Assembly (NCBI GenBank): GCA_004524365.1
Contig: SDNL01000002.1
Location: 1 to 49,074, forward strand
Direction of reading: 5' to 3'
DNA: 49,074 nucleotides
From: Promethearchaeota archaeon
GTDB taxonomy: Archaea > Asgardarchaeota > Lokiarchaeia > Sigyniarchaeales > SOKP01
Position 1 is the stretch's first letter, and the number at the start of each line of letters is the position of its first letter. The notes under the pieces are model-generated. The model did no database searches. It had not been told where the DNA came from and was given only the letters and a program-made list of their open reading frames with translations. Of the stretch, positions 2,927 to 34,797 are shown piece by piece. Both the position numbers and the translations under genes were made by a program.

Positions 2927-4057
2927 ATGGCAGAAAAAAACTATTCAATTGACCCTTGGTCCAGTTCGAACATTTTGGAAGAGGATTATGATAGATTGAT
3001 CAATAAGTTTGGAATAGAAAGGATTAATGATATTATGAGAGAACGTTTCAAGGATCATCGATTTATTAGGAGGAAAGTTATATTTGGAAATCGAGATTTA
3101 GACGAAATTTACAAGGCGATAGATAAAGATAAAAAATGGGCTGTAATGTCGGGGATTAAACCTTCTGGTCCTTTTCATTTAGGGACTATGACTACGGCAT
3201 TAGAAATAGTTGAATTCCAGTCTCTTGGTGCCAAAGCGTATTATTGTATTGCAGATATTGAAAGTTATGAAGACAATGGAATCCCCTACGAAGAAGCTGA
3301 AAGCACTGCTGTTGATAACTTAGCAGATATCTTAGCTTTAGGCTTAGATCCCGAAAATGCATATATATATCGACAAAGTGAAGAACCAATTGTAAAAGAC
3401 GTATGTTTTAAAGTTTCAAGACTTGTTACAAATAATATGCTTAAAGCAATTTATGGAAAAAAAACATTCGGTTTATATTTGGCCGCATTAGTTCAATGTG
3501 GAGATATCATCCTTCCACAGATTATGGATGGGGTGCAACCTACTGTTGTTCCCGTGGGAATTGATCAAGACCCTCACATAAGATTAACGAGAGACCTCAC
3601 TCGACGATATTATAAAGAGAAAAAAGTGAACGGAAAAATCATACAAGAGGATTTTTTCTTACCAGGAGCAACATACCATAAACTTCTACCGGGACTAGAT
3701 GGTTCTGAGAAAATGTCAAAGAGAAATCCTAACAGTTATTTTACATTTAATGAACCCCTTGAATCTATAGAGAAAAAAGTACGAAGTGCATTTACTGGAG
3801 GACGAAAAAATATGAAAATGCAAAAAGAGTTAGGGGGCGAACCTCAAAAATGTATGATTTATAAGATATTGACCTATTTTTTCGAAGATGATGATCAACA
3901 ACTTGCAGAAGAATTTGAACAGTGTATTCACGGAGAATTAATGTGTGGTGAACATAAACGTGCTTGTGTTGAAAAGATTATTGAATATGTGAAGGAACAC
4001 CGAAAGAAGAAAGAAAAGAATATAGATAAAGCAAGAGAGATATTAAATATTAATTAA
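2927..4057 (+). CDS. trpS: tryptophan--tRNA ligase (archaeal/eukaryal type)
   Basis: Class I aaRS with a HIGH-like PSGPFHLGT, GIDQDPHIRLTRDL and KMSKS as KMSKR. 376 aa. Confidence 0.8.
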   Translation: MAEKNYSIDPWSSSNILEEDYDRLINKFGIERINDIMRERFKDHRFIRRKVIFGNRDLDEIYKAIDKDKKWAVMSGIKPSGPFHLGTMTTALEIVEFQSLGAKAYYCIADIESYEDNGIPYEEAESTAVDNLADILALGLDPENAYIYRQSEEPIVKDVCFKVSRLVTNNMLKAIYGKKTFGLYLAALVQCGDIILPQIMDGVQPTVVPVGIDQDPHIRLTRDLTRRYYKEKKVNGKIIQEDFFLPGATYHKLLPGLDGSEKMSKRNPNSYFTFNEPLESIEKKVRSAFTGGRKNMKMQKELGGEPQKCMIYKILTYFFEDDDQQLAEEFEQCIHGELMCGEHKRACVEKIIEYVKEHRKKKEKNIDKAREILNIN

Positions 4058-5013
4058 AGCGTGTCTAATTCTTGACCTTGGGTATAAAATGAAGCATCCA
4101 GCGATTTTAAAATTTTTTTAAGTTTTTCAACAAACGGTGAAAAATTCTCCATAAATTCCTTTTTTTCTTGGTCGCTAAGTACAATTGATACATAATAAAC
4201 ACGTTCTTGGACTTCAATTCTGTGTAAATAAGAAAGAAATCCTTTATCAATAGTGAAAAAGTTCTGCTCTTGTTCCTCTTCATCCATTCTCTTCAATAAA
4301 TAAATGTGCTCTTTTATCTTATCCAGAAAATCAAAATATAGCTCTGGTTTGAGGGTATCGGCATAATATTCTGAGATAATTATCCCGTTTTTATCAAATA
4401 AGATAAGCGACGAACAACTAAATTTATCCAAGGAAGTTTCCATGTAAAGAGAAAGCTCAAAGAATTTTCCATCAAATACAGAAAGTCCATATGAAATTAA
4501 CTGTACAATTGAAATTATATCATAAATAGAGGTTTGTTGGAAAAGGATATTAAATGATGTAAACATCTCTTTGATCTTTTCCCTAAGCATTTCAATATCT
4601 TCATTTATTTGGTCATAATTACGAAGTTTTGGATCATATTTATGAAAAGTAACGATTAAGGGAATATTTATTTCATTTTCTATAAAAAAGTCCAATATAG
4701 TGGCCAAATATTCTAATGATTCATCGAATTTTTCCCTATCTTGGATATCTATAGTATATATTAAAAGATTTGTCCCAGCAAAATACACTCCAGGTCGACT
4801 TAAATAAAGTCTCCTATATTTTTCCTGACCACCCATATCCCAGAACACTGTTTCTCGACCGAGAAAGCTTGTCCTCCGATATTCCACTTTGATTGTAGGT
4901 TTAAGTTGGTGAACTTCATCGACAAAATCATATTTTTTATCTAGAGCTGTAAGAATAGATGTCTTACCGGCGTTGTGAAGTCCTGCGATAACTATCTTTA
5001 AAGGATCAACCAT
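4054..5013 (-). CDS. Arf/Rag(Gtr)-family small GTPase with C-terminal roadblock-like domain
   Basis: G1 GLHNAGKTS, switch I KPTIKVE, G3 WDMGGQE, and G4 as HKYD (His as in Rag/Gtr HKxD, not NKxD). The roughly 150-aa C-terminal alpha/beta domain ends FLSYLHRIEVQERVYYVSIVLSDQ...FVEKLKKIL. This parallels the RagA roadblock domain ([21 protein letters not shown]...HFEKLE). At 319 aa it is similar in size to RagA/Gtr1. Confidence 0.6.
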   Translation of the reverse strand: MVDPLKIVIAGLHNAGKTSILTALDKKYDFVDEVHQLKPTIKVEYRRTSFLGRETVFWDMGGQEKYRRLYLSRPGVYFAGTNLLIYTIDIQDREKFDESLEYLATILDFFIENEINIPLIVTFHKYDPKLRNYDQINEDIEMLREKIKEMFTSFNILFQQTSIYDIISIVQLISYGLSVFDGKFFELSLYMETSLDKFSCSSLILFDKNGIIISEYYADTLKPELYFDFLDKIKEHIYLLKRMDEEEQEQNFFTIDKGFLSYLHRIEVQERVYYVSIVLSDQEKKEFMENFSPFVEKLKKILKSLDASFYTQGQELDTL

Positions 5014-5326
5014 TTAATCACTTTTCGTTTGTTAAATAATAAAGTTAAATAATAAAAACTTTTTGAGTTCTATTTTTTATTAATATTTAACTTTATTTAT
5101 ACTATTTAATATTTTTAATGTTTCTTATGAATTATGTATATTTCCATATTTATTTAAACTTATTCCCCAATTCAAAAAATAATATTGATAGATTCTTAAA
5201 AATATTTGCATAAAGGTCTTAATCTTCAGAAAATCTAAGTCTAAAATCTCTCTTATGCTTAAGTTAACATAATAACTTTAAAGCGTTTTTTTCTTATTTA
5301 TATCTTAATTAAAGAAATAATAAGGA

Positions 5327-5879: not shown

Positions 5880-6917
5880 TTAATCTTTTTCTTTAATACA
5901 TGATTCTAAACTCTTTATTTGCTTTAGGATGGCTTTTGGAAGGCTTTCCTCTTCGGCGTCATTTAAAATCAGAATTTTGGACAAAACAAGAAGCTCTTTT
6001 TGGTATATTCCTTCTATATTGCTCCATCCCTTACTTTTGGCTTCAATACAGATAAAATTATTTATCCTCTTTTTTCTCATACAAGTATAATTCTTACAAT
6101 TTAAGCAATTTTTAGGAGTAAAATAAGCATCTCCATTCCTGAGAAAAATTGAGAACTCCCCCAAATTTTTATTATCTAATATTATCCAATCAGAATCTAC
6201 GACTCTGAAGGGTATTTTTAATTGATATAGGTATTTCTTTAACATTTTTGTATTAAGTCTTCTATTCAATTCAGAAGATGACTGTTCTGGTTCGAAATAG
6301 TCCTCACATGTATATTTAATATTATTTTTATTATTCACTATATTCATAAGAGGGATGAAATTTATAACAAAATGATCATTAAGTTTACCTTCCTTCATAT
6401 TCTTTCTAAAAAGTGAGCTAATTTGAGAAAAGACACTTTTTTCATCAAAAATTTTATTGAATTCAAATTTATGTGTGCTTAGTAAACTAAGAAATTTACT
6501 TGTGGAAAAATAAGCATTTTTAATATCTTGAACGGTTTTATCTTTTAAAATAATGCAAAAAAGGATGGTGATAACAGGTAGTCTAATGATAATCTCTTTA
6601 TAATAATCAAGCATTTGCTCCACATTATCTTCTGAAATAAATACAATTACTGCTTCAGCACCGGTATAATACATTGTTCTTACAAAAACCCGTTCCAATT
6701 TACAAGAAATATTCCAAAGATAAAAATCATAAATTTTATTATAAGGAACTTTAGAAATATTTACTCCAATAGTATTCTTATTTTTAAGAGAGAATCCTGT
6801 TTTACTAACTATTTCTTGAAATCTATCCTTTATTTGCTCCACTCCTCCTAAAAGTAAGATTTTTTTCTTATAATATTTCCTTGCAGAGCTTCTACTTTTT
6901 TGCGAAGAAGTCACCAT
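5880..6917 (-). CDS. Rab/Ras-fold pseudo-GTPase with Cys-containing C-terminal domain
   Basis: The G-domain scaffold is retained: KILLLG, switch-I-like TIGVNISKV, YYTGAEAVIVF. The nucleotide motifs are lost. The P-loop is GGVEQIKDRF, DxxGQ is NISCKLE, and NKxD is ILKD. The C-terminal roughly 170 aa contains CLNCKNYTC...FIC. The ATG at 6917 is preferred; the ORF track starts at an upstream GTG (6932). Confidence 0.55.
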   Translation of the reverse strand: MVTSSQKSRSSARKYYKKKILLLGGVEQIKDRFQEIVSKTGFSLKNKNTIGVNISKVPYNKIYDFYLWNISCKLERVFVRTMYYTGAEAVIVFISEDNVEQMLDYYKEIIIRLPVITILFCIILKDKTVQDIKNAYFSTSKFLSLLSTHKFEFNKIFDEKSVFSQISSLFRKNMKEGKLNDHFVINFIPLMNIVNNKNNIKYTCEDYFEPEQSSSELNRRLNTKMLKKYLYQLKIPFRVVDSDWIILDNKNLGEFSIFLRNGDAYFTPKNCLNCKNYTCMRKKRINNFICIEAKSKGWSNIEGIYQKELLVLSKILILNDAEEESLPKAILKQIKSLESCIKEKD

Positions 6918-7153
6918 AGCTTCATTCCCCACAGAATATATTAATATTTACAAGTTTTTTATTATGAGCAATTATCAATAAATGTAAAGCATAGATAATA
7001 AATATGGAACTTTTTTCAATTTTTTCTTAAGATCTTGTTCGTTTGATTATCTTTTTTTTAATTATTAACTAGCAAAAAATTACTATTTTTTTGGGCTTTA
7101 ATAATAAAGAATAAGTATTTTCAATAATTTAGTTTAGTAGGAGCTGATTAAAT

Positions 7154-7597
7154 ATGGGACCCAAAGTTGGCTACGATAAATACAAGGAGTTTATAGATAA
7201 GATTCATGATAAGAAAAATGATATCCCGGAATACATTTCTATAATCATTCGAGAAGGAAAGAAAAAGGATATTATTGATGTTAAAATAAGAAAACTTGAA
7301 TCTAATATTTTAAAAATAATGGCACACGAACAAGAAAAGAAAGGATGGTACACTCATTCTTATCATATCCCTTTAAAAAACCTCGGATTGGATGATGATG
7401 CAAAAAATAAAAACATTTTACCATATCTAAATCATCCCGCCAAAATAATGAGTGATAAGACAACACAAGAAACCGTGAAGGAACTAATAGAAAAATATGT
7501 AGAAGTTATAAGTGAGAGAAAAAAACATTTCTTCCATACTGCGCGCTATAAAGCTAAAAAAGACTATAGTGGCGGGCGTAAAATGAAAGGATTTTAA
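7154..7597 (+). CDS. hypothetical protein (charged, helical)
   Basis: 147-aa ORF with an ATG start and GGAG 11 nt upstream. I recognise no family motif. Confidence 0.5.
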   Translation: MGPKVGYDKYKEFIDKIHDKKNDIPEYISIIIREGKKKDIIDVKIRKLESNILKIMAHEQEKKGWYTHSYHIPLKNLGLDDDAKNKNILPYLNHPAKIMSDKTTQETVKELIEKYVEVISERKKHFFHTARYKAKKDYSGGRKMKGF

Positions 7598-7624: not shown

Positions 7625-8296
7625 TTAAGAATCTTTTAGAGTTAGAAAAACAGTTTCTCCACTCATTACATATTCTAACACAATGTTAAATTTCTTTTCC
7701 ATATATTCCGATATAGCATTAATTATTCCTTGAGCAATACCTATTATGAATTGAGGGGATATTGTATCTTTAATTACGATAGTTTTATCTTCAGACTTAA
7801 TATCTTCTATATCTGAAATATTTTTAAAAATAGGGGCAATTTCATTTTTTAAAACTAATTTTGGATCTATTTTAAAAGAGGCACCTAACTTGATTACTGG
7901 TTCCCTTCTTTTATTCCATAAATAATGACCAATTTTTTTTCCTGCTATAAATAAATTTTCAGGTTCTTGAATTTCTGATAATAATAGAGATAAAAATGCT
8001 AAAAATTCCTTTGAAGGGTCTTTTTTTGCTTTAATTTTTTCAACTTTTTTTATTATTTCTGCTTGTGGCATTTTTGTTTTTACAACCACAGAGGATTCAT
8101 TATCTTTCACGAGAATAATTCTTTCAATACCCCTGACGTTATAATTCTTATCTACATAAACCGTTACAAAATGATCGTTATGAGAAACAAGTATTGGTAC
8201 TATTGATGATAAATTTAATTCAGTTTCTATGGATTTCGGGTCTATTTCATAGGTTATGATTTCACCACAAGTACATTCGAATCTAATTGATGTCAT
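7625..8296 (-). CDS. hypothetical protein: N-terminal Cys-pair module plus possible V4R-like C-terminal domain
   Basis: 223 aa. The N-terminus (FECTCGE...HNDHFVTVYVDKNYNVRG) shares a pattern with ORF 37341-38195. The C-terminal half (FIAGKKIGHYLW...VIKDTISPQFIIGIAQGIINAISEYM...VFLTLK) loosely fits a V4R/Bet3-like layout. Confidence 0.5.
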   Translation of the reverse strand: MTSIRFECTCGEIITYEIDPKSIETELNLSSIVPILVSHNDHFVTVYVDKNYNVRGIERIILVKDNESSVVVKTKMPQAEIIKKVEKIKAKKDPSKEFLAFLSLLLSEIQEPENLFIAGKKIGHYLWNKRREPVIKLGASFKIDPKLVLKNEIAPIFKNISDIEDIKSEDKTIVIKDTISPQFIIGIAQGIINAISEYMEKKFNIVLEYVMSGETVFLTLKDS

Positions 8297-8379
8297 TTTT
8301 TGAGTTGTTTCTATTATTTCATATATATTAGTATATCCTTATAATTCTTAAAAGGTTTTTTTTAATTAAAAAAAAAGAA

Positions 8380-9642
8380 TTAGAAGAATTGAATAATATT
8401 TAAGTAAAACAAGAAAATTGAAAGGAGGATTGCCAATGGGAACACAATGTAATAAAATTTTGTTTTGAACGGTCTTTCTAGGATAGGCATTTTTATTCTT
8501 AAATAAAGCGCTATTATCCCAGCGGGTAACATTGCAGATATTAAAACAATTCCAATCCCTGTAGCTGCGAAAATATCAACAATTAATCCTTCTGTTAAGG
8601 GGATCAACAGAGTCATTATACTCCCAATTATTACTACAAGAATAATAGTAACTCCAATATTAGCAATATGATAGCCCTTTTTAGTTTTATTGAATATTTT
8701 TGGTAGACTATCGTCTCGAGCCATTACTCTTAGTTGATGAATACAAGTGGCTAAAACTGCAAAACAAGTCCCTGCTGCTGAAAAGGCCGCAAAGAATGAA
8801 AGGATAGGGGTTGGGATCCCTGTATTTGAAGCAATAATAACAAAAGGATTGGAAGTTCCCAGATCATTAATTCCTACTAGACTTGATGCTCCTAAGGTGA
8901 CTAAAATATAAACACCTAAAATTGAGAGCAAAGCTATTAAAATTCCTATTGACATTTTAAGATTTCCTTTAATCAATGAATCCTTTTTATTTAATTCTTC
9001 AGTAAAAATCAACATTACTTCAAACCCTAATAAAGCCCAAATAGAAAGGTTTATAGTTTCTTGGAAACCAGAGAAAGTCAATTCATTTACAGAATAATTA
9101 GCTACATCTGCATTCAAAAGCATCAAAATAGATACAATTATTAAAAAGACTATCTTTATTAAAACCCATCCAAGCGCCAAAAAACCAAAAAGACGAGGCG
9201 AAACGATTCCTGATAATAATCCGAAGAGAATTAAAAAGAGCAGAGTAAAAACGACCAACATTAAATTATCTTGAACACCAAAAATCCCTAATGTAAAATT
9301 TGCAGTTAAAAAAGCTAAAAGAGAAGAGATAAATAAATAACCGATATAATATAAAATTCCAACTAAGGTTCCCCACTTTTTATTAACTGCGCCTCCTACA
9401 TAAGAATATGGGCCACCACTCTTGGGAAACATACTAACACATTCAGCATACGACAACCCTGCAGTTAGAAATAATAGCCAACTTATTACAACGGCCAATA
9501 TTGAAAAAATACCAGAACTATTTGCCCACTTGAGAGGATCTCTCCAAATTCCTGATCCAATAACTGTAGTCATACCGATTGCGATGATTCCTAAAAAATT
9601 AATCTTATTTTTATTTTGTTTTTGAGATTCGTTATTAGACAT
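8380..9642 (-). CDS. APC-superfamily amino-acid permease
   Basis: 420 aa with about 12 hydrophobic segments and the N-terminal GIIAIGMTTVIGSGIW motif typical of APC transporters. Confidence 0.75.
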   Translation of the reverse strand: MSNNESQKQNKNKINFLGIIAIGMTTVIGSGIWRDPLKWANSSGIFSILAVVISWLLFLTAGLSYAECVSMFPKSGGPYSYVGGAVNKKWGTLVGILYYIGYLFISSLLAFLTANFTLGIFGVQDNLMLVVFTLLFLILFGLLSGIVSPRLFGFLALGWVLIKIVFLIIVSILMLLNADVANYSVNELTFSGFQETINLSIWALLGFEVMLIFTEELNKKDSLIKGNLKMSIGILIALLSILGVYILVTLGASSLVGINDLGTSNPFVIIASNTGIPTPILSFFAAFSAAGTCFAVLATCIHQLRVMARDDSLPKIFNKTKKGYHIANIGVTIILVVIIGSIMTLLIPLTEGLIVDIFAATGIGIVLISAMLPAGIIALYLRIKMPILERPFKTKFYYIVFPLAILLSIFLFYLNIIQFF

Positions 9643-9822
9643 AGAATAATATATGTTTCTTTATTATTTAAAGCTTTCTTTGAAATATTTGTTTGAAATA
9701 AATATGAATAATAACGATTCAAGGAATTTACTTATGATTCATCCAATTATAATAAGTAGAATAGAAATTAGAATTTAAATAAAAAAATATAATAAAAATG
9801 TGTTAATTATTTTTGGAGATTT

Positions 9823-10491
9823 TCATATTTTCTTGTTTTTCTTTTCTTCTCGAATATATTCGGGTTTTATTTTCGTAACTCTTGTCATGATCTTTGCTTG
9901 TAATTTGAGTATGATTTTCTCAATCTCTTCAGAAGGGACGGTAATGTTAAAATTATATATGGGTTCTTTATCTTCATCTGGTTCTGGTTCAGCATTAATG
10001 AATTTTACGTCCTTAGTCTGTTTAAAACTTATAACTAAGTTAATTACACTACTAAGTTTATTCTCTATTGTGATTTTTCTAGTTATTTCATCATATCGAG
10101 TTCGCACTTCTACATGTTCTTTCGGTTTTATAGCATCTTCAAATGAAATTTTGGGGTTTCCTTCTTTTATTTCAATAATATCATCATTTATTTCAATATC
10201 AGCATCAATAATTTCTTCGGAAAGAATTTTATTACCTATGGTCGCCGAGGTGGAAAGAAATAGAAAAGGTAATCCCCCCTTATAGAGAGTGAGGGGTGAA
10301 CCGCTTGGGAGTTCTTTAGGCTCTCCCTTCTTATTCAAAACATATTTTATTTTACAATCATGGATATGTTTATTATTTGAAACGGATGTTGCATTGTATT
10401 GTATATCCGCTTTACGGTCAATTTTAAAATCCGCATCAGTTTTAAACCATTCTAATTTTATTTTCTTACGAGACGGAATGTTTGCTTTCAT
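9823..10491 (-). CDS. DUF4139-like C-terminal-part protein
   Basis: LTLYKGGLPFLFLSTSATIGNKILSEEIIDADIEI resembles the distal part of DUF4139 proteins. The ATG at 10491 is preceded by GAGGTG with a 6-nt spacer. The ORF track uses the GTG at 10500. Confidence 0.5.
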   Translation of the reverse strand: MKANIPSRKKIKLEWFKTDADFKIDRKADIQYNATSVSNNKHIHDCKIKYVLNKKGEPKELPSGSPLTLYKGGLPFLFLSTSATIGNKILSEEIIDADIEINDDIIEIKEGNPKISFEDAIKPKEHVEVRTRYDEITRKITIENKLSSVINLVISFKQTKDVKFINAEPEPDEDKEPIYNFNITVPSEEIEKIILKLQAKIMTRVTKIKPEYIREEKKNKKI

Positions 10492-10496
10492 TTTTT

Positions 10497-10503
10497 TCAC
10501 CTC
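10497..10503 (-). promoter_or_regulatory. Shine-Dalgarno motif GAGGTGA for the downstream gene
   Basis: The reverse complement of tcacctc (10497-10503) is GAGGTGA. It overlaps the TGA stop (10502-10504) of the upstream gene, and an ATG lies at 10491. Confidence 0.55.
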
Positions 10504-11251
10504 ATAATGTTAAATTTTTCATTCTTTGTGTTTTTTTCATTCGATTTAATTCGCTCATCATTTCATTTCTTAGGCCAGATAATTGTTCTTGGTTTATAGA
10601 TGTGGGTTCCATTGGAGGGCTCCCAGGAGCTCTAGTACCGATTGATTGTCTTGTAGGAAGTTCAAAAATCGCGAATCCAAGTTCCACATTTTCATATGAA
10701 AAACTTGTTTGATTATTAACTACGAGATAGGCTTCAAGTTCAGCCGAGTTTCCATCATCCCTAACATTTACATTTAATGTTGTCTCCCATCTAATACGTA
10801 AATCGGTGATAAAATATTGAATCTGTACAATTACTTCACCCTCTTTCTTCGCATTGATTATAAAATCAAATGCCCCCTTCATATCATCGTAGGTTCTGTA
10901 TTTACTAGCTTCACAAAGACGATTTATATCCTCTCTAATTTCTCTTGTAAAATCAATTGATTGCGAAATAATGGTATTTGCTGCACTTTTCTCTCTATTG
11001 ATAATTTGACGAGTGGTTTCTGGATCGGGTAAGGAAACAACAGTTTGTTGAAGGTTAAACAAATCTTTATCTTGTTCTGGGTTTAAATAATTTAATTTAA
11101 CACTTGCGGAGTTGGGATCAAATGAAGCGGGAATGTTTTGAATTTGAAATTCGTTTGTGCCCCTTTGAAGGCTTACTTTTATTTCTCGTTCGACAATACC
11201 GCCACCGTGGTTAAAAATTATTAACTTTTTCACTTTTGGGTCGATTAACAT
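10502..11251 (-). CDS. DUF4140/DUF4139-like N-terminal-part protein
   Basis: The N-terminus (KLIIFNHGGGIVEREIKVSLQRGTNEFQIQNIPASFDPNSASVKL) fits the DUF4140 pattern. IRWETTLNVNV......LEAYLVVNNQTSFSYENVELGF fits the start of DUF4139. Confidence 0.5.
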   Translation of the reverse strand: MLIDPKVKKLIIFNHGGGIVEREIKVSLQRGTNEFQIQNIPASFDPNSASVKLNYLNPEQDKDLFNLQQTVVSLPDPETTRQIINREKSAANTIISQSIDFTREIREDINRLCEASKYRTYDDMKGAFDFIINAKKEGEVIVQIQYFITDLRIRWETTLNVNVRDDGNSAELEAYLVVNNQTSFSYENVELGFAIFELPTRQSIGTRAPGSPPMEPTSINQEQLSGLRNEMMSELNRMKKTQRMKNLTL

Positions 11252-23373: not shown

Positions 23374-25203
23374 ATGGTGAAAAAAATGGCAAATGAAATG
23401 ATGATAGTTGGATTGGTTTTTGGTTTGGCGTTCTTGATTATAGTGTTGTTATTTATTATCCCTTTAGCGATAATGATATTTGGAATAATAAAATTCGGAA
23501 TGGGGAAAACACTTTTTAAGCCACCTAATTTAACAGAACCCTTTAATCCTAAAGATTTTGGGAGAATGATGAAAATTGTCGAGTATTTGGATTATCTTTT
23601 GATTGCCCTAATATTCATTTTTGGTTTTCCCATATCATTAAGTTCTTTATTCGATTTAGACGCTTCCCCATTATTATTAGGAATGCCTTATGTTCTTCTG
23701 GCTTTTTATATAATTGTATGTTTAGAAGTAATTTTGGTTTTATTAGAACATTATAGAAGAGGAACCAACATCTTCAAGGACCTTTACTATGATTATGAAA
23801 ATGTTTACAAGGCAAACAATATTCCAGTTATTGGTCAATGCAAAATATGCGGGAGAGCAATCCCTCAATATTATGGACTGAAGGTAGGATTAAATTCTGA
23901 TAAACTTTTAGAAGTTCCGATTTGCTTTCAAGCTGATGGTCAACATGTAGTTACATTACAAAACCAAGAAGATAAAAAGTTCTTTAATGAATATCAAAAA
24001 ATATTCGATGAGCTTAATAATATCAGAAATTATTGGGTGTATGGAAAGATAATAATTTTAATTTACTATATTGTAATTAGTGTTATCTTTACTGAATTAC
24101 TTGCGAGTAATATACCGATAATGATTGGATATGGACCTACTAATTCTAATTATTATACAATATACACAATAGCATACGGAGTTTTATCAATGGTTCCCTT
24201 ATCAATCTTATTTAGCATTCAATTTATAGATAACAAGATAACCCATATTTTCTTGATTAAACGGCTATATTTCGATAATATGTATGAGGAAATTAAAGAA
24301 GCTATAGATAACGGAAAGAAGATTGATATTTCATATATTCAACCTCCAGATTACACAAAACAAGGAGATCAATTACCCAGCTTTATTGAGACTATAAAGA
24401 TGGCACGGACTATGGCAAATAATATCAGAAGTGCTACAAAGGGTGTTGCAGCGGTTAAAGATGTAAAAAACATAATGGAATTAGCAAGTACAGTAAAAGG
24501 AGTGGGATCGGACATTGTGGATACTAAAAAAGATGTCGATGATTTTTTGGGAGAGCATACAAGCGGAAAAGGTACATCTGTACCTATTAATTCTTCTCAA
24601 CTCAGAAAACCAGTCGTTAGTAAACTTCAAAAGGAGAAGTGTCCCAATTGTGGAAAAGAGATTGAAGAAGAGTGGAAAAAATGTCCATTTTGTTCTAAGA
24701 TCTTGAAAAAAGATTGTCCTAATTGCGGTAAAACTTTGAAAGTGAATTGGTTGAGTTGTCCTTTCTGTGGATTTGATTTTAATAAATCTAAAAAAACGAA
24801 AAAATCTCAAATTAAACAACAAAGAGCTGAGGATAAACAAGAAGAACCCATTATCGAAGAACAAGAAATTGAACAGAAACCAAAACAATCTGAAAAACTT
24901 CAAGAAGAAACAGATGAAATTGAACCAAAAAAGATTGAGGAAAAAGAAAAAGAAGTTGAGAGTACCAAAAAGAAAGAAGAACCCATTATCGAAGAACAAG
25001 AAATTGAACAGAAACCAAAACAACTAGAAAAATCTCAAGAAGAAACAGATGAAATTGAACCAAAAAAGATTGAGGAAAAAGAAAAAGAAGTTGAGAGTAC
25101 CAAAGAGAAAAAGGAACCATCCTTTAGAATATGCCCAAATTGTGGTAATACTTTAAAACCTAATCAAAAATTTTGTACTCAATGTGGTGCGAAATTTTAT
25201 TAA
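23374..25203 (+). CDS. polytopic membrane protein with three C-terminal zinc ribbons and an acidic tandem repeat
   Basis: Multiple TM segments lie in the first 290 aa. The Zn ribbons are CPNCGKEIEEEWKKCPFC, CPNCGKTLKVNWLSCPFCG and CPNCGNTLKPNQKFCTQCG. A 2 x 45-aa E/K-rich repeat sits between the second and third ribbon. Confidence 0.65.
   Translation: MVKKMANEMMIVGLVFGLAFLIIVLLFIIPLAIMIFGIIKFGMGKTLFKPPNLTEPFNPKDFGRMMKIVEYLDYLLIALIFIFGFPISLSSLFDLDASPLLLGMPYVLLAFYIIVCLEVILVLLEHYRRGTNIFKDLYYDYENVYKANNIPVIGQCKICGRAIPQYYGLKVGLNSDKLLEVPICFQADGQHVVTLQNQEDKKFFNEYQKIFDELNNIRNYWVYGKIIILIYYIVISVIFTELLASNIPIMIGYGPTNSNYYTIYTIAYGVLSMVPLSILFSIQFIDNKITHIFLIKRLYFDNMYEEIKEAIDNGKKIDISYIQPPDYTKQGDQLPSFIETIKMARTMANNIRSATKGVAAVKDVKNIMELASTVKGVGSDIVDTKKDVDDFLGEHTSGKGTSVPINSSQLRKPVVSKLQKEKCPNCGKEIEEEWKKCPFCSKILKKDCPNCGKTLKVNWLSCPFCGFDFNKSKKTKKSQIKQQRAEDKQEEPIIEEQEIEQKPKQSEKLQEETDEIEPKKIEEKEKEVESTKKKEEPIIEEQEIEQKPKQLEKSQEETDEIEPKKIEEKEKEVESTKEKKEPSFRICPNCGNTLKPNQKFCTQCGAKFY
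24841..25110 (+). repeat. near-perfect 2 x 135 bp tandem direct repeat, in frame
   Basis: Copy 1 starts gaagaacccattatcgaag at 24841 and copy 2 at 24976. The only differences seen are caatctgaaaaacttcaa versus caactagaaaaatctcaa and a few bases at the 3' end. It encodes EEPIIEEQEIEQKPKQ(S/L)EK(L/S)QEETDEIEPKKIEEKEKEVESTK. Confidence 0.9.
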
Positions 25204-32751: not shown

Positions 32752-34797
32752 TTAAATGAGATATTTTAATTCTCTTATTTCCTTCATTAGTTTTTTATTG
32801 TTATTTAATTCATTAATTAAAGAATTTATTTGGGAGATTATTAAAGAAACTTGATCATAATTGAATGCTTGAAATTTAGAGGCAGAAAAATAGGGATACG
32901 TATATTTATATTCCTTAAATAAGAGAAGTTTTGTAGAATATAAAAGATGAATAAGTTCTTGAAAGTTATTTCTAATTTCTTTTTTAATCACAGATAAATA
33001 TAAGACATTTATCAATGATTCGGAGAGATCATTGAGGAGATTTAGATTTTTATGAATATTTTGTACATTCAAATCATTATAATACTCTTTGTTTTGTTTT
33101 AAATCATAATTCAATTGAGCAAGAAATTGCAAAACCATCCCGAGGTGCCCAATCGATTTGGGGATTCCCTCAGAGGGAATTGGTAATGTTTTGATGAAGC
33201 TTCCATTAAATCTAAGGTAGTGACCTTGCATATGAAGAGTTCCATATAAGCTCTTAAAAATATGATCTATGAAAGAGGAGTTTAAAACAGTCATAAGAGC
33301 AAATAATTGTGTAGAAGAAAGAGAGGGAATTATAAGAAAATAGAGACCTGTAACATTTGTGAAAATACCAGAGTAATCATACACGCAAGTAAGATTCTTA
33401 GCTATCTCTCTTACCATTATCTTCGGAGAGATTATCATATCTTTTTTCGATTGATCAGGTGGGAAGATAAAATATGAGACTTTCAAATCTCTTTTAGCTA
33501 TCTTAATTCGCTTATTAAACTTAATATGATACATACCAACATTGCCCGTTCCAATTATGAGAGGTAAATTTACTATTGGATCTTTCTCATCATGAGTTTT
33601 ATCAAAAAACTTGGCGTAATTAGTGAATCCATACGGTCGGTAGCCAATAGTTAAATCCTCAAACATTTTTTTCATTGATTCATGTTTAGAAAAAAGTTCA
33701 ATAATCAATCCAACATTACCCTTTATAGGTATAACATGTTTAGGAAGTAATCGGAGATTATCTTGTTTAACTTTTATTTTAGAGTGATGTTGCTTAGAAA
33801 CTAGATCATTTTCATGATTATACTTCTTTATTTCAATATGATTGGTTTTTCCAGGAATTTGTTTATTTATTGTAATAATAACAGGATACGTGGATCTGTT
33901 TTTGAAGATAGGAAGCGAAGAAACATTAATTACTTCCACTATTTGGGTTTTGTTTATTAATAAATCTCTTATTTTTATTCCATAATCCGCAGATAAGAAT
34001 TTATTTGTAATGATAAAACAGAGAAAACCCAAATCTTCTTTTAATAACTTTAAGGCACTTTCAATAAATAAGATGGAGAGATCAAATAACTTATATGCTG
34101 ATTCATAGGAGCGATACAGTTCTTTTTTATATTTCTTATCTCTTATTTTCTTATTCTCAACATAAGGCGGATTTCCAATAATAATATCAAATTTTTTACT
34201 GGATCTGTATTTCAATAAAGTTTCAGTGTGATAAATATTAAAATCCGTTTGGGATAACAATTTTAATTTATTAATATCTTGAAGGTCAATTTTTTTTTCC
34301 CTTTTAAATTTCTCAGGTATCTTATCAGAATATAACCATAATATTAAGCGAAGTTTAGAGATAAGGCAAGCCTTTTTTTCTATGTCTATTCCATGAATAT
34401 TTCGTTCTATTATTCTTTTTTTTAAGAGAAACTCATCCTTTGAAGGATAAATGTTTCTAAATATAATAAACAATTGTTCTGCTAAAGCAATTAAAAATCT
34501 TCCAGAACCACAAGAAGGATCTAGTAATTTGATACTTTTTAAGCATTCGCTTATTTTCTGCTTTATTAGAGGTTTGCTTGAAAATATTTTGTCGAGTTTA
34601 GCGAGATCCAGTTGACTTTTATCTATATCATATCGTAGTAGTAAATATTTTTCAAGATAGAACGTAAGAGTTTTTTTACACATATAATCAACGATTTTTT
34701 TAGGAGTATATGTGGTTCCAAATTTCTTGCTACTGATTGGATTATCATATTTTTTTTGCTCAAAGTTCTTGATTAGCGCTTTTATTTGGCTTTCCAT
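32752..34797 (-). CDS. gamma-class N6-adenine DNA methyltransferase (Eco57I/TaqI-like) with TaqI-type C-terminal specificity domain; no nuclease domain
   Basis: TYTPKKIVDYM near the N-terminus, motif I LLDPSCGSGRFL, motif IV IIGNPPYV. The downstream target-recognition-like region ends FIKTLPIP and is followed by a helical tail. 681 aa. Confidence 0.75.
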   Translation of the reverse strand: MESQIKALIKNFEQKKYDNPISSKKFGTTYTPKKIVDYMCKKTLTFYLEKYLLLRYDIDKSQLDLAKLDKIFSSKPLIKQKISECLKSIKLLDPSCGSGRFLIALAEQLFIIFRNIYPSKDEFLLKKRIIERNIHGIDIEKKACLISKLRLILWLYSDKIPEKFKREKKIDLQDINKLKLLSQTDFNIYHTETLLKYRSSKKFDIIIGNPPYVENKKIRDKKYKKELYRSYESAYKLFDLSILFIESALKLLKEDLGFLCFIITNKFLSADYGIKIRDLLINKTQIVEVINVSSLPIFKNRSTYPVIITINKQIPGKTNHIEIKKYNHENDLVSKQHHSKIKVKQDNLRLLPKHVIPIKGNVGLIIELFSKHESMKKMFEDLTIGYRPYGFTNYAKFFDKTHDEKDPIVNLPLIIGTGNVGMYHIKFNKRIKIAKRDLKVSYFIFPPDQSKKDMIISPKIMVREIAKNLTCVYDYSGIFTNVTGLYFLIIPSLSSTQLFALMTVLNSSFIDHIFKSLYGTLHMQGHYLRFNGSFIKTLPIPSEGIPKSIGHLGMVLQFLAQLNYDLKQNKEYYNDLNVQNIHKNLNLLNDLSESLINVLYLSVIKKEIRNNFQELIHLLYSTKLLLFKEYKYTYPYFSASKFQAFNYDQVSLIISQINSLINELNNNKKLMKEIRELKYLI

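Follow-up and report, generated by a model that had tools for sequence, protein, structure and literature searches.

The archaeal small GTPase studied here has sequence features of both the Arf family and the Rag/Gtr family. In eukaryotes, Rag GTPases act upstream of TORC1 as the amino-acid switch. The question raised by the locus is to which of the two families its product belongs and with what it might act. The gene lies at positions 4054 to 5013 of a 49,074-nucleotide stretch (the window) of contig SDNL01000002.1 from the Promethearchaeota archaeon assembly GCA_004524365.1. An initial annotation made from the sequence had proposed a Rag/Gtr-like GTPase with a C-terminal roadblock domain, and our analysis supports its membership in the RagGtr family. 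We favor, with a probability of about 0.85, a chromosomal, vertically inherited RagGtr gene of the Loki lineage, whose product combines a Rag-type G domain with a roadblock-fold C-terminal domain (CTD) and would act as a GTP/GDP switch. The gene is also found next to a tryptophan-tRNA ligase (TrpRS) gene in every relative in which this could be checked.

A complete gene for a Rag-type GTPase

The open reading frame (ORF) starts with ATG on the minus strand and comprises 960 nucleotides, a length that in DNA of ~29-30% G+C dismisses a chance origin. Its boundaries and its product of 319 amino acids are exactly those initially annotated, and the likeness in length to RagA and Gtr1 (described as ~310 residues) is borne out by their 313 and 310 residues. 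A 90%-clustered database contains 720 homologs of the protein at E ≤ 1e-5, and in a 50%-clustered library it matches 1621 cluster representatives at E ≤ 1e-3. Most orthologs are 307-313 residues long, and the C-terminal extension of ~12 residues in the window protein is common only to its closest relatives. The AT-rich region upstream, in which a TATA-like TTTTTATTATTT lies ~30-45 nucleotides ahead of the ATG, presumably serves as the gene's own promoter. The features of the gene, all on the minus strand, are as follows, with the evidence in parentheses.

4054..5013: complete RagGtr-family GTPase gene, 319 residues (ORF, Pfam, PDB sequence matches, Foldseek, tree)
4483..5013: G domain, residues 1-177 (AlphaFold2 (AF2) secondary structure; Pfam Gtr1_RagA over residues 6-171)
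4960..4983: G1/P-loop GLHNAGKT, residues 11-18 (direct reading; ortholog alignment)
4891..4899: switch I PTI, residues 39-41 (direct reading; ortholog alignment)
4825..4842: G3 WDMGGQ, residues 58-63, with Gln63 putatively catalytic (direct reading; ortholog alignment)
4633..4644: G4 HKYD, residues 124-127, the Rag-type HKxD variant (direct reading; ortholog alignment)
4519..4533: G5 TSIYD, residues 161-165, Rag-type TSI[WYF]D (ortholog and HMMER alignments, motif table)
4096..4482: roadblock-fold CTD, residues 178-306, α1-β1-β2-α2-β3-β4-β5-α3 (AF2 topology, Foldseek, marginal match to the LokiRagO CTD)
4054..4095: C-terminal tail, residues 307-319, and stop codon; predicted local distance difference test (pLDDT) score <50 (AF2; ortholog lengths)
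5014..5326: AT-rich upstream intergenic region of 313 bp (sequence reading; no ORF of at least 60 amino acids)

All five motifs of the G domain, G1 to G5, are intact. The WDxGGQ and PTI motifs noted at the outset are present by direct reading, the former as WDMGGQ, and so is the HKYD sequence that had been likened to the HKxD variant of Rag/Gtr proteins. Across 64 orthologs, invariant residues include G11, G16, K17 and T18 of G1 (where the consensus of the orthologs is GLDNAGKT), P39 and T40 of switch I, W58, D59, G61, G62 and Q63 of G3, and H124, K125 and D127 of G4. From this conserved set, the protein would be expected to cycle between GTP- and GDP-bound states with Gln63 as the catalytic residue.

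Several features that separate the families place the protein on the Rag side. In our motif table, ten residues precede G1, within the range of Rag-type proteins (6-15) and short of that of Arf, Arl and Sar (19-31), and the spacing from G3 to G4 is 60, the same as in RagA and Gtr1 (Rag-type range 57-61; Arf 54). The HKxD form of G4 occurs in RagA, Schizosaccharomyces pombe Gtr1 (SpGtr1), most labelled Asgard RagGtr sequences, and LokiRagO and LokiRagM, two Loki Rag-like paralogs whose crystal structures were released in 2025-2026; in Arf, ArfL, Ras, Rab and MglA, the motif is NKxD. Likewise, the G5 sequence TSIYD conforms to the Rag-type pattern TSI[WYF]D, as opposed to the Arf-type [CS]AxxG, and aligns with TSIWD of RagA and Gtr1 in HMMER alignments. 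Judged by the ten residues ahead of G1, the protein lacks an N-terminal amphipathic helix, and its sequence has no lipid-modification motif (no Gly2, no C-terminal Cys). Any recruitment to membranes or complexes would therefore go through protein partners.

Profile matches to the G domain are nearly balanced between the two families. Pfam Arf matches residues 5-142 (2.7e-18, 66.5 bits) and Gtr1_RagA residues 6-171 (1.3e-17, 64.4 bits), a tie that follows from equal raw distances to Arf and Rag. Because these scores are so close, it is the topology of the tree, the signature motifs and the architecture, and not overall similarity, that carry the placement. In a phmmer comparison with PDB sequences, the best matches were LokiRagO (8yl2, 4e-35) and LokiRagM (8zla, 1e-20), both of which carry the bare label "GTP-binding protein", followed by RagA (1e-11) and S. 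pombe Gtr1 (6e-11). The RagA and Gtr1 alignments extend beyond the G domain; those with Arl3 and Arf stay inside it. A profile of the 64 orthologs matched 8yl2 over its full length (8e-45), RagA (5e-17) and Gtr1 (4e-16), and again the RagA and Gtr1 alignments reached into the CTD.

For phylogenetic placement, we built a neighbor-joining tree from 172 columns of the G domains of 44 sequences, with 200 bootstrap replicates. As references it included labelled sequences taken from Table S3 of Vargova et al. (10.1101/2024.02.28.582541), PDB-derived RagA, SpGtr1, LokiRagO and LokiRagM, and family representatives from a deep search; RagC, Saccharomyces cerevisiae Gtr1 and Gtr2, ARF1, ARF6, ARL1, ARL2, ARL3, ARL8B, SAR1A, HRAS, RAB7A and MglA were entered as textbook sequences. 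The window protein and its family grouped with Asgard RagGtr and the eukaryotic Rags in 98% of bootstraps, apart from Arf/Arl/Sar, ArfL, Ras/Rab and MglA. Grouping with Arf, the outcome that would have spoken for an ordinary Arf-like archaeal GTPase, received 0%. The distance to ArfL was also greater (2.09) than that to Asgard RagGtr (1.03). Eukaryotic Rags of the A and C types formed a single clade (93%) inside the Asgard radiation, and since they group apart from the window protein, it is not assignable to either type.

A C-terminal domain of the roadblock fold

The alpha/beta domain of about 150 residues described in the initial annotation is real, although somewhat shorter (~142 residues), and has roadblock topology in an AF2 model based on the alignment of the 64 orthologs (pLDDT 73.5, predicted template modelling score 0.71; CTD pLDDT mostly 66-93). 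Its predicted helices (H) and strands (E) are H182-198, E200-207, E210-216, H223-246, E252-256, E259-268, E271-280 and H281-305, a succession that agrees with the description of roadblock domains by Tran et al. 2024 (PMC10933270). Invariant residues are abundant in α2 and in β1-β2 of the domain across the 64 orthologs. In the same model, residues 14-45 (end of the P-loop, helix α1 and switch I) have pLDDT below 50 despite their high conservation; a nucleotide-free prediction or a shallow alignment are both possibilities.

A Foldseek search of the PDB with the model returned only Rag-type chains at ranks 1 to 40, so the structural comparison did not turn up an alternative family for the C-terminal half. 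Ranks 1-3 were LokiRagO (8yl2; E = 1e-19, query TM-score (TMq) 0.66), and ranks 4-40 were full-length RagA, RagC, Gtr1, Gtr2 and LokiRagM (8zla/9m28), aligned over 300-330 columns with TMq of 0.40-0.61; E-values for RagA, RagC, Gtr1 and Gtr2 ranged from 7e-16 to 2e-8. The first Arf structure, GerdArfR1, appeared at rank 41 and was aligned over the G domain only (TMq ~0.38-0.39).

Sequence searches with the CTD gave little. A CTD-only profile had a single match in the PDB, the LokiRagO CTD, at a marginal E = 0.021, and hhalign gave probabilities of <1% for the RagA CTD and 0.2% for LAMTOR2. Of the three Pfam families named in the initial annotation, Gtr1_RagA and Arf were matched and Robl_LC7 (PF03259) was not, either with the whole protein at E ≤ 1 or with 23 CTD sequences at E ≤ 10. 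The same 23 CTDs gave scattered chance matches in Pfam and no consistent family. The by-eye alignment with RagA first proposed (FLSYLHRIEV..VYYVSIVLS..FVEKLKKIL) pairs β4-β5-α3 sensibly but has no statistical sequence support. With the sequence-level searches failing, the assignment is structural: on the predicted model, the CTD belongs to the roadblock fold, though not to the Robl_LC7 sequence family. By analogy with Rag/Gtr dimers, it may act as an oligomerisation and partner-docking platform.

Relation to known Rag-type proteins

The identification was right, but the novelty that the initial annotation implied does not hold, as the RagGtr family, direct orthologs of the window protein and structures of its paralogs had been catalogued before. 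Fusions of roadblock domains with Rag-like GTPases were reported in Lokiarchaeum in 2016 (Klinger et al., via Dey et al., PMC4917890), when the use of Rag homologs as a way into nutrient sensing in archaea was already listed as an open question (PMC4917890). This literature agrees with the statement that Rag-like genes had been found among Asgard archaea before. Rag-family GTPases abound in Asgards (Liu et al. 2020), and their architectures combining a GTPase with a roadblock domain have been analysed by Tran et al. 2024 (PMC10933270), according to whom it is not yet known what part Rag proteins play in Asgards. Vargova et al. (10.1101/2024.02.28.582541) divided Asgard small GTPases into RagGtr, ArfL, ArfR, RasL and MglA, with eukaryotic Rags nested among Asgard RagGtr and ArfL restricted to Asgards.

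Two sequences that carry tree-based RagGtr labels in Table S3 of that study, KKK46455.1 (Lokiarchaeum GC14_75) and TKJ20992.1 (Loki_b32), contain signature peptides of the ortholog group of the window protein. KKK46455.1 is 53% identical to the latter over the full length, has HKLD as its G4 motif, and is an ortholog of equal length with the same motifs, the same GTPase-roadblock architecture and a place in the same clade of the tree. We see no categorical difference between this type of RagGtr and the window protein, apart from the ~12-residue tail of the latter. The closest match among species representatives is 64% identical.

LokiRagO and LokiRagM are the best PDB matches in both sequence and structure and have HKxD and T[ST]IY[DN] in common with the window protein. 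They are paralogs, however, with 27% identity in structural alignment and separate tree branches. The eukaryotic RagA/B-RagC/D and Gtr1-Gtr2 pairs resemble the window protein in having two domains, HKxD, TSI[WY]D and a long switch II spacing and in lacking a lipid anchor, and differ in that it is of neither the A nor the C type, has no partner gene nearby and has a CTD not detectably similar to theirs in sequence. Bacterial MglA and MglB also combine a GTPase with a roadblock protein, but as separate polypeptides, whereas both are fused here, and MglA-type G domains lie far from the window GTPase in the neighbor-joining tree.

A conserved locus with a TrpRS gene

We scanned GTDB species representatives and confirmed 146 stretches encoding relatives, of which 80 with orthologs were kept. 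These 80 orthologs have 52-64% identity to the window protein and are nearly all labelled Promethearchaeota or Promethearchaeia; named homologs in general are almost all from Promethearchaeota/Lokiarchaeota (Asgard). The gene has orthologs in 80 or more species-level genomes, at a single conserved locus. The syntenic order, from a comparison of 87 related loci, is SHMT, DUF7121, TrmI, a 147-residue ORF (orf147), an optional gene for a 350-residue protein, YjbQ, the Rag-like gene and TrpRS.

2927..4057, plus strand: TrpRS gene, convergent with the GTPase gene (NCBIfam, Pfam, adjacency counts)

In the window, the 3' end of the TrpRS gene has a 4-bp overlap with the GTPase gene. Immediately downstream of the Rag-like gene, 83 of the 87 loci have a complete TrpRS ORF, and in the remaining four the contigs end before a complete one could fit. 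In 72 loci the enzyme is of the window type and its gene convergent, with a gap of -4 to ~150 bp, but of 1.2-1.8 kb in seven. A second subtype (type B), 30% identical to the window TrpRS and scoring 507 bits against NCBIfam NF008927 (above the model cutoff), is convergent in three loci and co-directional in eight, where it lies 91-1287 bp downstream. Loci with type-B TrpRS fall at no fewer than five separate positions on the tree of Rag-like orthologs. Insertions of 1.2-1.8 kb between the Rag-like gene and TrpRS occur in eight loci; in the two examined, the inserted genes are an unrelated Cys-rich ORF and a thiolase-like gene. Sister RagGtr groups nearest to this one lack TrpRS beside the Rag-like gene; their downstream gene is PGK, 3HCDH or a GNAT gene. 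We found no literature report linking Asgard Rags to TrpRS. The adjacency of the two genes, which holds in every checkable relative, is the one new observation made here.

Alternative readings

A number of results weigh against the reading of this locus as a RagGtr gene with a roadblock CTD. The Pfam score for Arf ties with that for Gtr1_RagA and nominally tops it, and raw G-domain distances to the eukaryotic families are equal (Arf 1.81, Rag 1.82). The tree was made by neighbor joining with limited sampling, and several of its eukaryotic references were entered as textbook sequences. AF2 confidence is moderate overall (pLDDT 73.5, below 50 at residues 14-45), the whole-chain root-mean-square deviation from Rag chains is 6-7 Å, and sequence comparison gives the CTD no significant match to that of RagA/Gtr, to LAMTOR2 or to Robl_LC7. 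In addition, one of the two solved Loki paralogs, LokiRagM, is titled monomeric.

The protein might be an ordinary Arf-family or Arf-like (ArfR/ArfL) GTPase with an unrelated C-terminal extension, a reading for which the nominally best Pfam match (Arf, 2.7e-18), the WDxGGQ motif, the Arf-like PTI and P-loop consensus GLDNAGKT (GLDxAGKT-like), and source annotations such as "Small Arf-related GTPase" and "ADP-ribosylation factor-like protein" can be cited. Unlike Arf, Arl, Sar and ArfR proteins, however, the window protein has ten residues and not 19-31 before G1, HKYD as G4, TSIYD as G5, a longer switch II spacing (60 vs 54) and an additional roadblock domain of 140 residues. Nor does it match Asgard ArfL proteins, which are ~155-175 residues long (typically ~170), with a GxxGVGKS P-loop, NKQD and no CTD. 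Motifs, tree (0% bootstrap for Arf), Foldseek ranking (Arf structures behind 40 Rag chains) and the curated RagGtr label of the ortholog effectively refute an Arf-like identity, which we regard as very improbable. More weight is due to a reading that concerns partners. Eukaryotic Rags are obligate heterodimers of an A-type and a C-type subunit joined via their roadblock CTDs (6s6a and 3r7w among the Foldseek matches), and the window protein could likewise be half of an obligate heterodimer with a distally encoded RagGtr paralog, like RagA/C or Gtr1/Gtr2. Consistent with this, Loki genomes encode several RagGtr paralogs (Vargova et al., Table S3, 10.1101/2024.02.28.582541), and an operon pair of Rag-like genes in strain MK-D1 was predicted by AF2 to form a Gtr1/Gtr2-like heterodimer (Tran et al. 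2024, PMC10933270). On the other hand, no second Rag-like paralog was found in the 49-kb window with a Rag-family hidden Markov model (HMM), nor does one lie in the conserved locus of the 87 relatives, the adjacent 350-residue GTPase-like protein has no roadblock domain, and the closest solved relative, LokiRagO, is titled a homotetrameric RagA-like GTPase with GTP (8yl2; 8zla/9m28 are titled monomeric, and both oligomeric states are taken from the PDB titles). We consider an obligate heterodimer possible but doubtful. The LokiRagO title, together with the lack of an adjacent paralog gene, favors a homo-oligomer, and by analogy the window GTPase is probably homo-oligomeric.

A further possibility, compatible with a RagGtr identity, is that the GTPase is functionally coupled to TrpRS, for example by reporting Trp or tRNA-Trp charging status, in which case it might be an archaeal equivalent, independent of TOR, of the links between aminoacyl-tRNA synthetases and Rags proposed for eukaryotes. 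The adjacency in 83 of 87 loci, with the other four on contigs that end early, survives replacement by the 30% identical subtype, inverted orientation and at least five configuration changes over ~80 species of the Loki lineage; the 3' ends of the two genes often abut or overlap, and sister RagGtr groups have no such linkage. However, the genes are convergent in 75 of the 83 loci and thus not co-transcribed. The SHMT-DUF7121-TrmI-YjbQ-Rag-TrpRS block is syntenic across the clade, and the two genes may therefore be neighbors by inheritance of gene order; in-situ replacement by recombination could account for the switches of TrpRS type without a functional link. Eight loci also tolerate unrelated genes between the two. 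No paper reports such a coupling, and we judge it unlikely.

Other genes of the window

The archaeal context given in the initial annotation is confirmed by the Asgard record names (Promethearchaeota) and by housekeeping neighbors. The latter comprise TrpRS, YjbQ, TrmI, SHMT, RpoD with an Fe-S insert and the ribosomal proteins L18e, L13 and S9, together with EPSP synthase, chorismate synthase, Clp1 and Rio2. Other features near the GTPase gene are listed below.

5880-6932, minus strand: pseudo-GTPase-like protein of 350 residues (AF2, Foldseek)
7154-7597, plus strand: orf147, 147 residues
7625-11251: lineage-specific block that interrupts the conserved synteny
8380-9642: amino-acid permease within this block

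Eukaryotic Rags dock on Ragulator/EGO, are regulated by the longin GTPase-activating proteins of GATOR1 and FLCN, and recruit TORC1. No roadblock, longin or DENN genes were recognised by Pfam scans of the window or in the related loci, and no Ragulator-like gene adjoins the GTPase gene in the window or the related loci, a statement that applies to these loci and not to the whole genome.

The 350-residue protein belongs to a family of 56 members annotated as "hypothetical" and found in Promethearchaeota only; its gene sits upstream of YjbQ in 39 of the 87 loci. The AF2 model is confident (pLDDT 87.9) and has an N-terminal small-GTPase fold that lacks a GK[S/T] P-loop and in which WNISCK replaces DxxGQ. 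Foldseek matched this half to MglA, Ran and Rab, MglA-like proteins being the best, and found no roadblock. In the CTD, Cys276, Cys279, Cys284 and Cys295 are invariant, and the domain that contains them looks like a Zn-binding module. We rejected this protein as a RagC-like partner, given its degenerate G domain, the lack of a roadblock, its occurrence in 39 of 87 loci and the fact that the Rag-family HMM misses it.

In 71 of the 87 loci, orf147 keeps its place and its orientation, with 46-72% identity; it has no match in Pfam, NCBIfam or the PDB. The block at 7625-11251 contains an unannotated ORF of 223 residues, the permease, an ORF of 225 residues and a DUF4140 protein. Counterparts of its genes are missing from 86-87 of the 87 loci; one locus (L001) alone has the 225-residue ORF and the DUF4140 protein. 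Further along the window, positions 23374-25203 (plus strand) encode a 609-residue protein whose C-terminus carries several zinc-ribbon modules, and positions 32752-34797 (minus strand) a 681-residue Eco57I/MmeI-like type IIG restriction-modification enzyme.

Among the related loci, the NCBI organism labels of one series of metagenome-assembled genomes (JBHL...) look unreliable. In the protein clusters of P0036/P0274, a single cluster at 90% identity mixes Thorarchaeota and Heimdallarchaeota labels, and loci labelled Thor, Hod, Hermod or Odin (L018, L026, L042, L060) have Loki-type synteny and 53-59% identity to the window protein.

Implications

Asgard relatives of Rag bear on the origins of nutrient signalling and of membrane-associated GTPase systems. 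The window gene adds one well-conserved, single-locus member to the RagGtr family and leaves the overall picture unchanged. In the Loki lineage, its ortholog group has the status of a core, syntenic gene, whereas most eukaryotic-signature genes are patchy in distribution, and it is for this reason well suited to functional studies in strains in culture. The fixed association with TrpRS offers a concrete and cheaply testable hypothesis. Links between aminoacyl-tRNA synthetases and Rags in nutrient sensing have been proposed in eukaryotes, and if the coupling were real, a TrpRS-coupled Rag would represent a pre-TOR ancestor of such a link.

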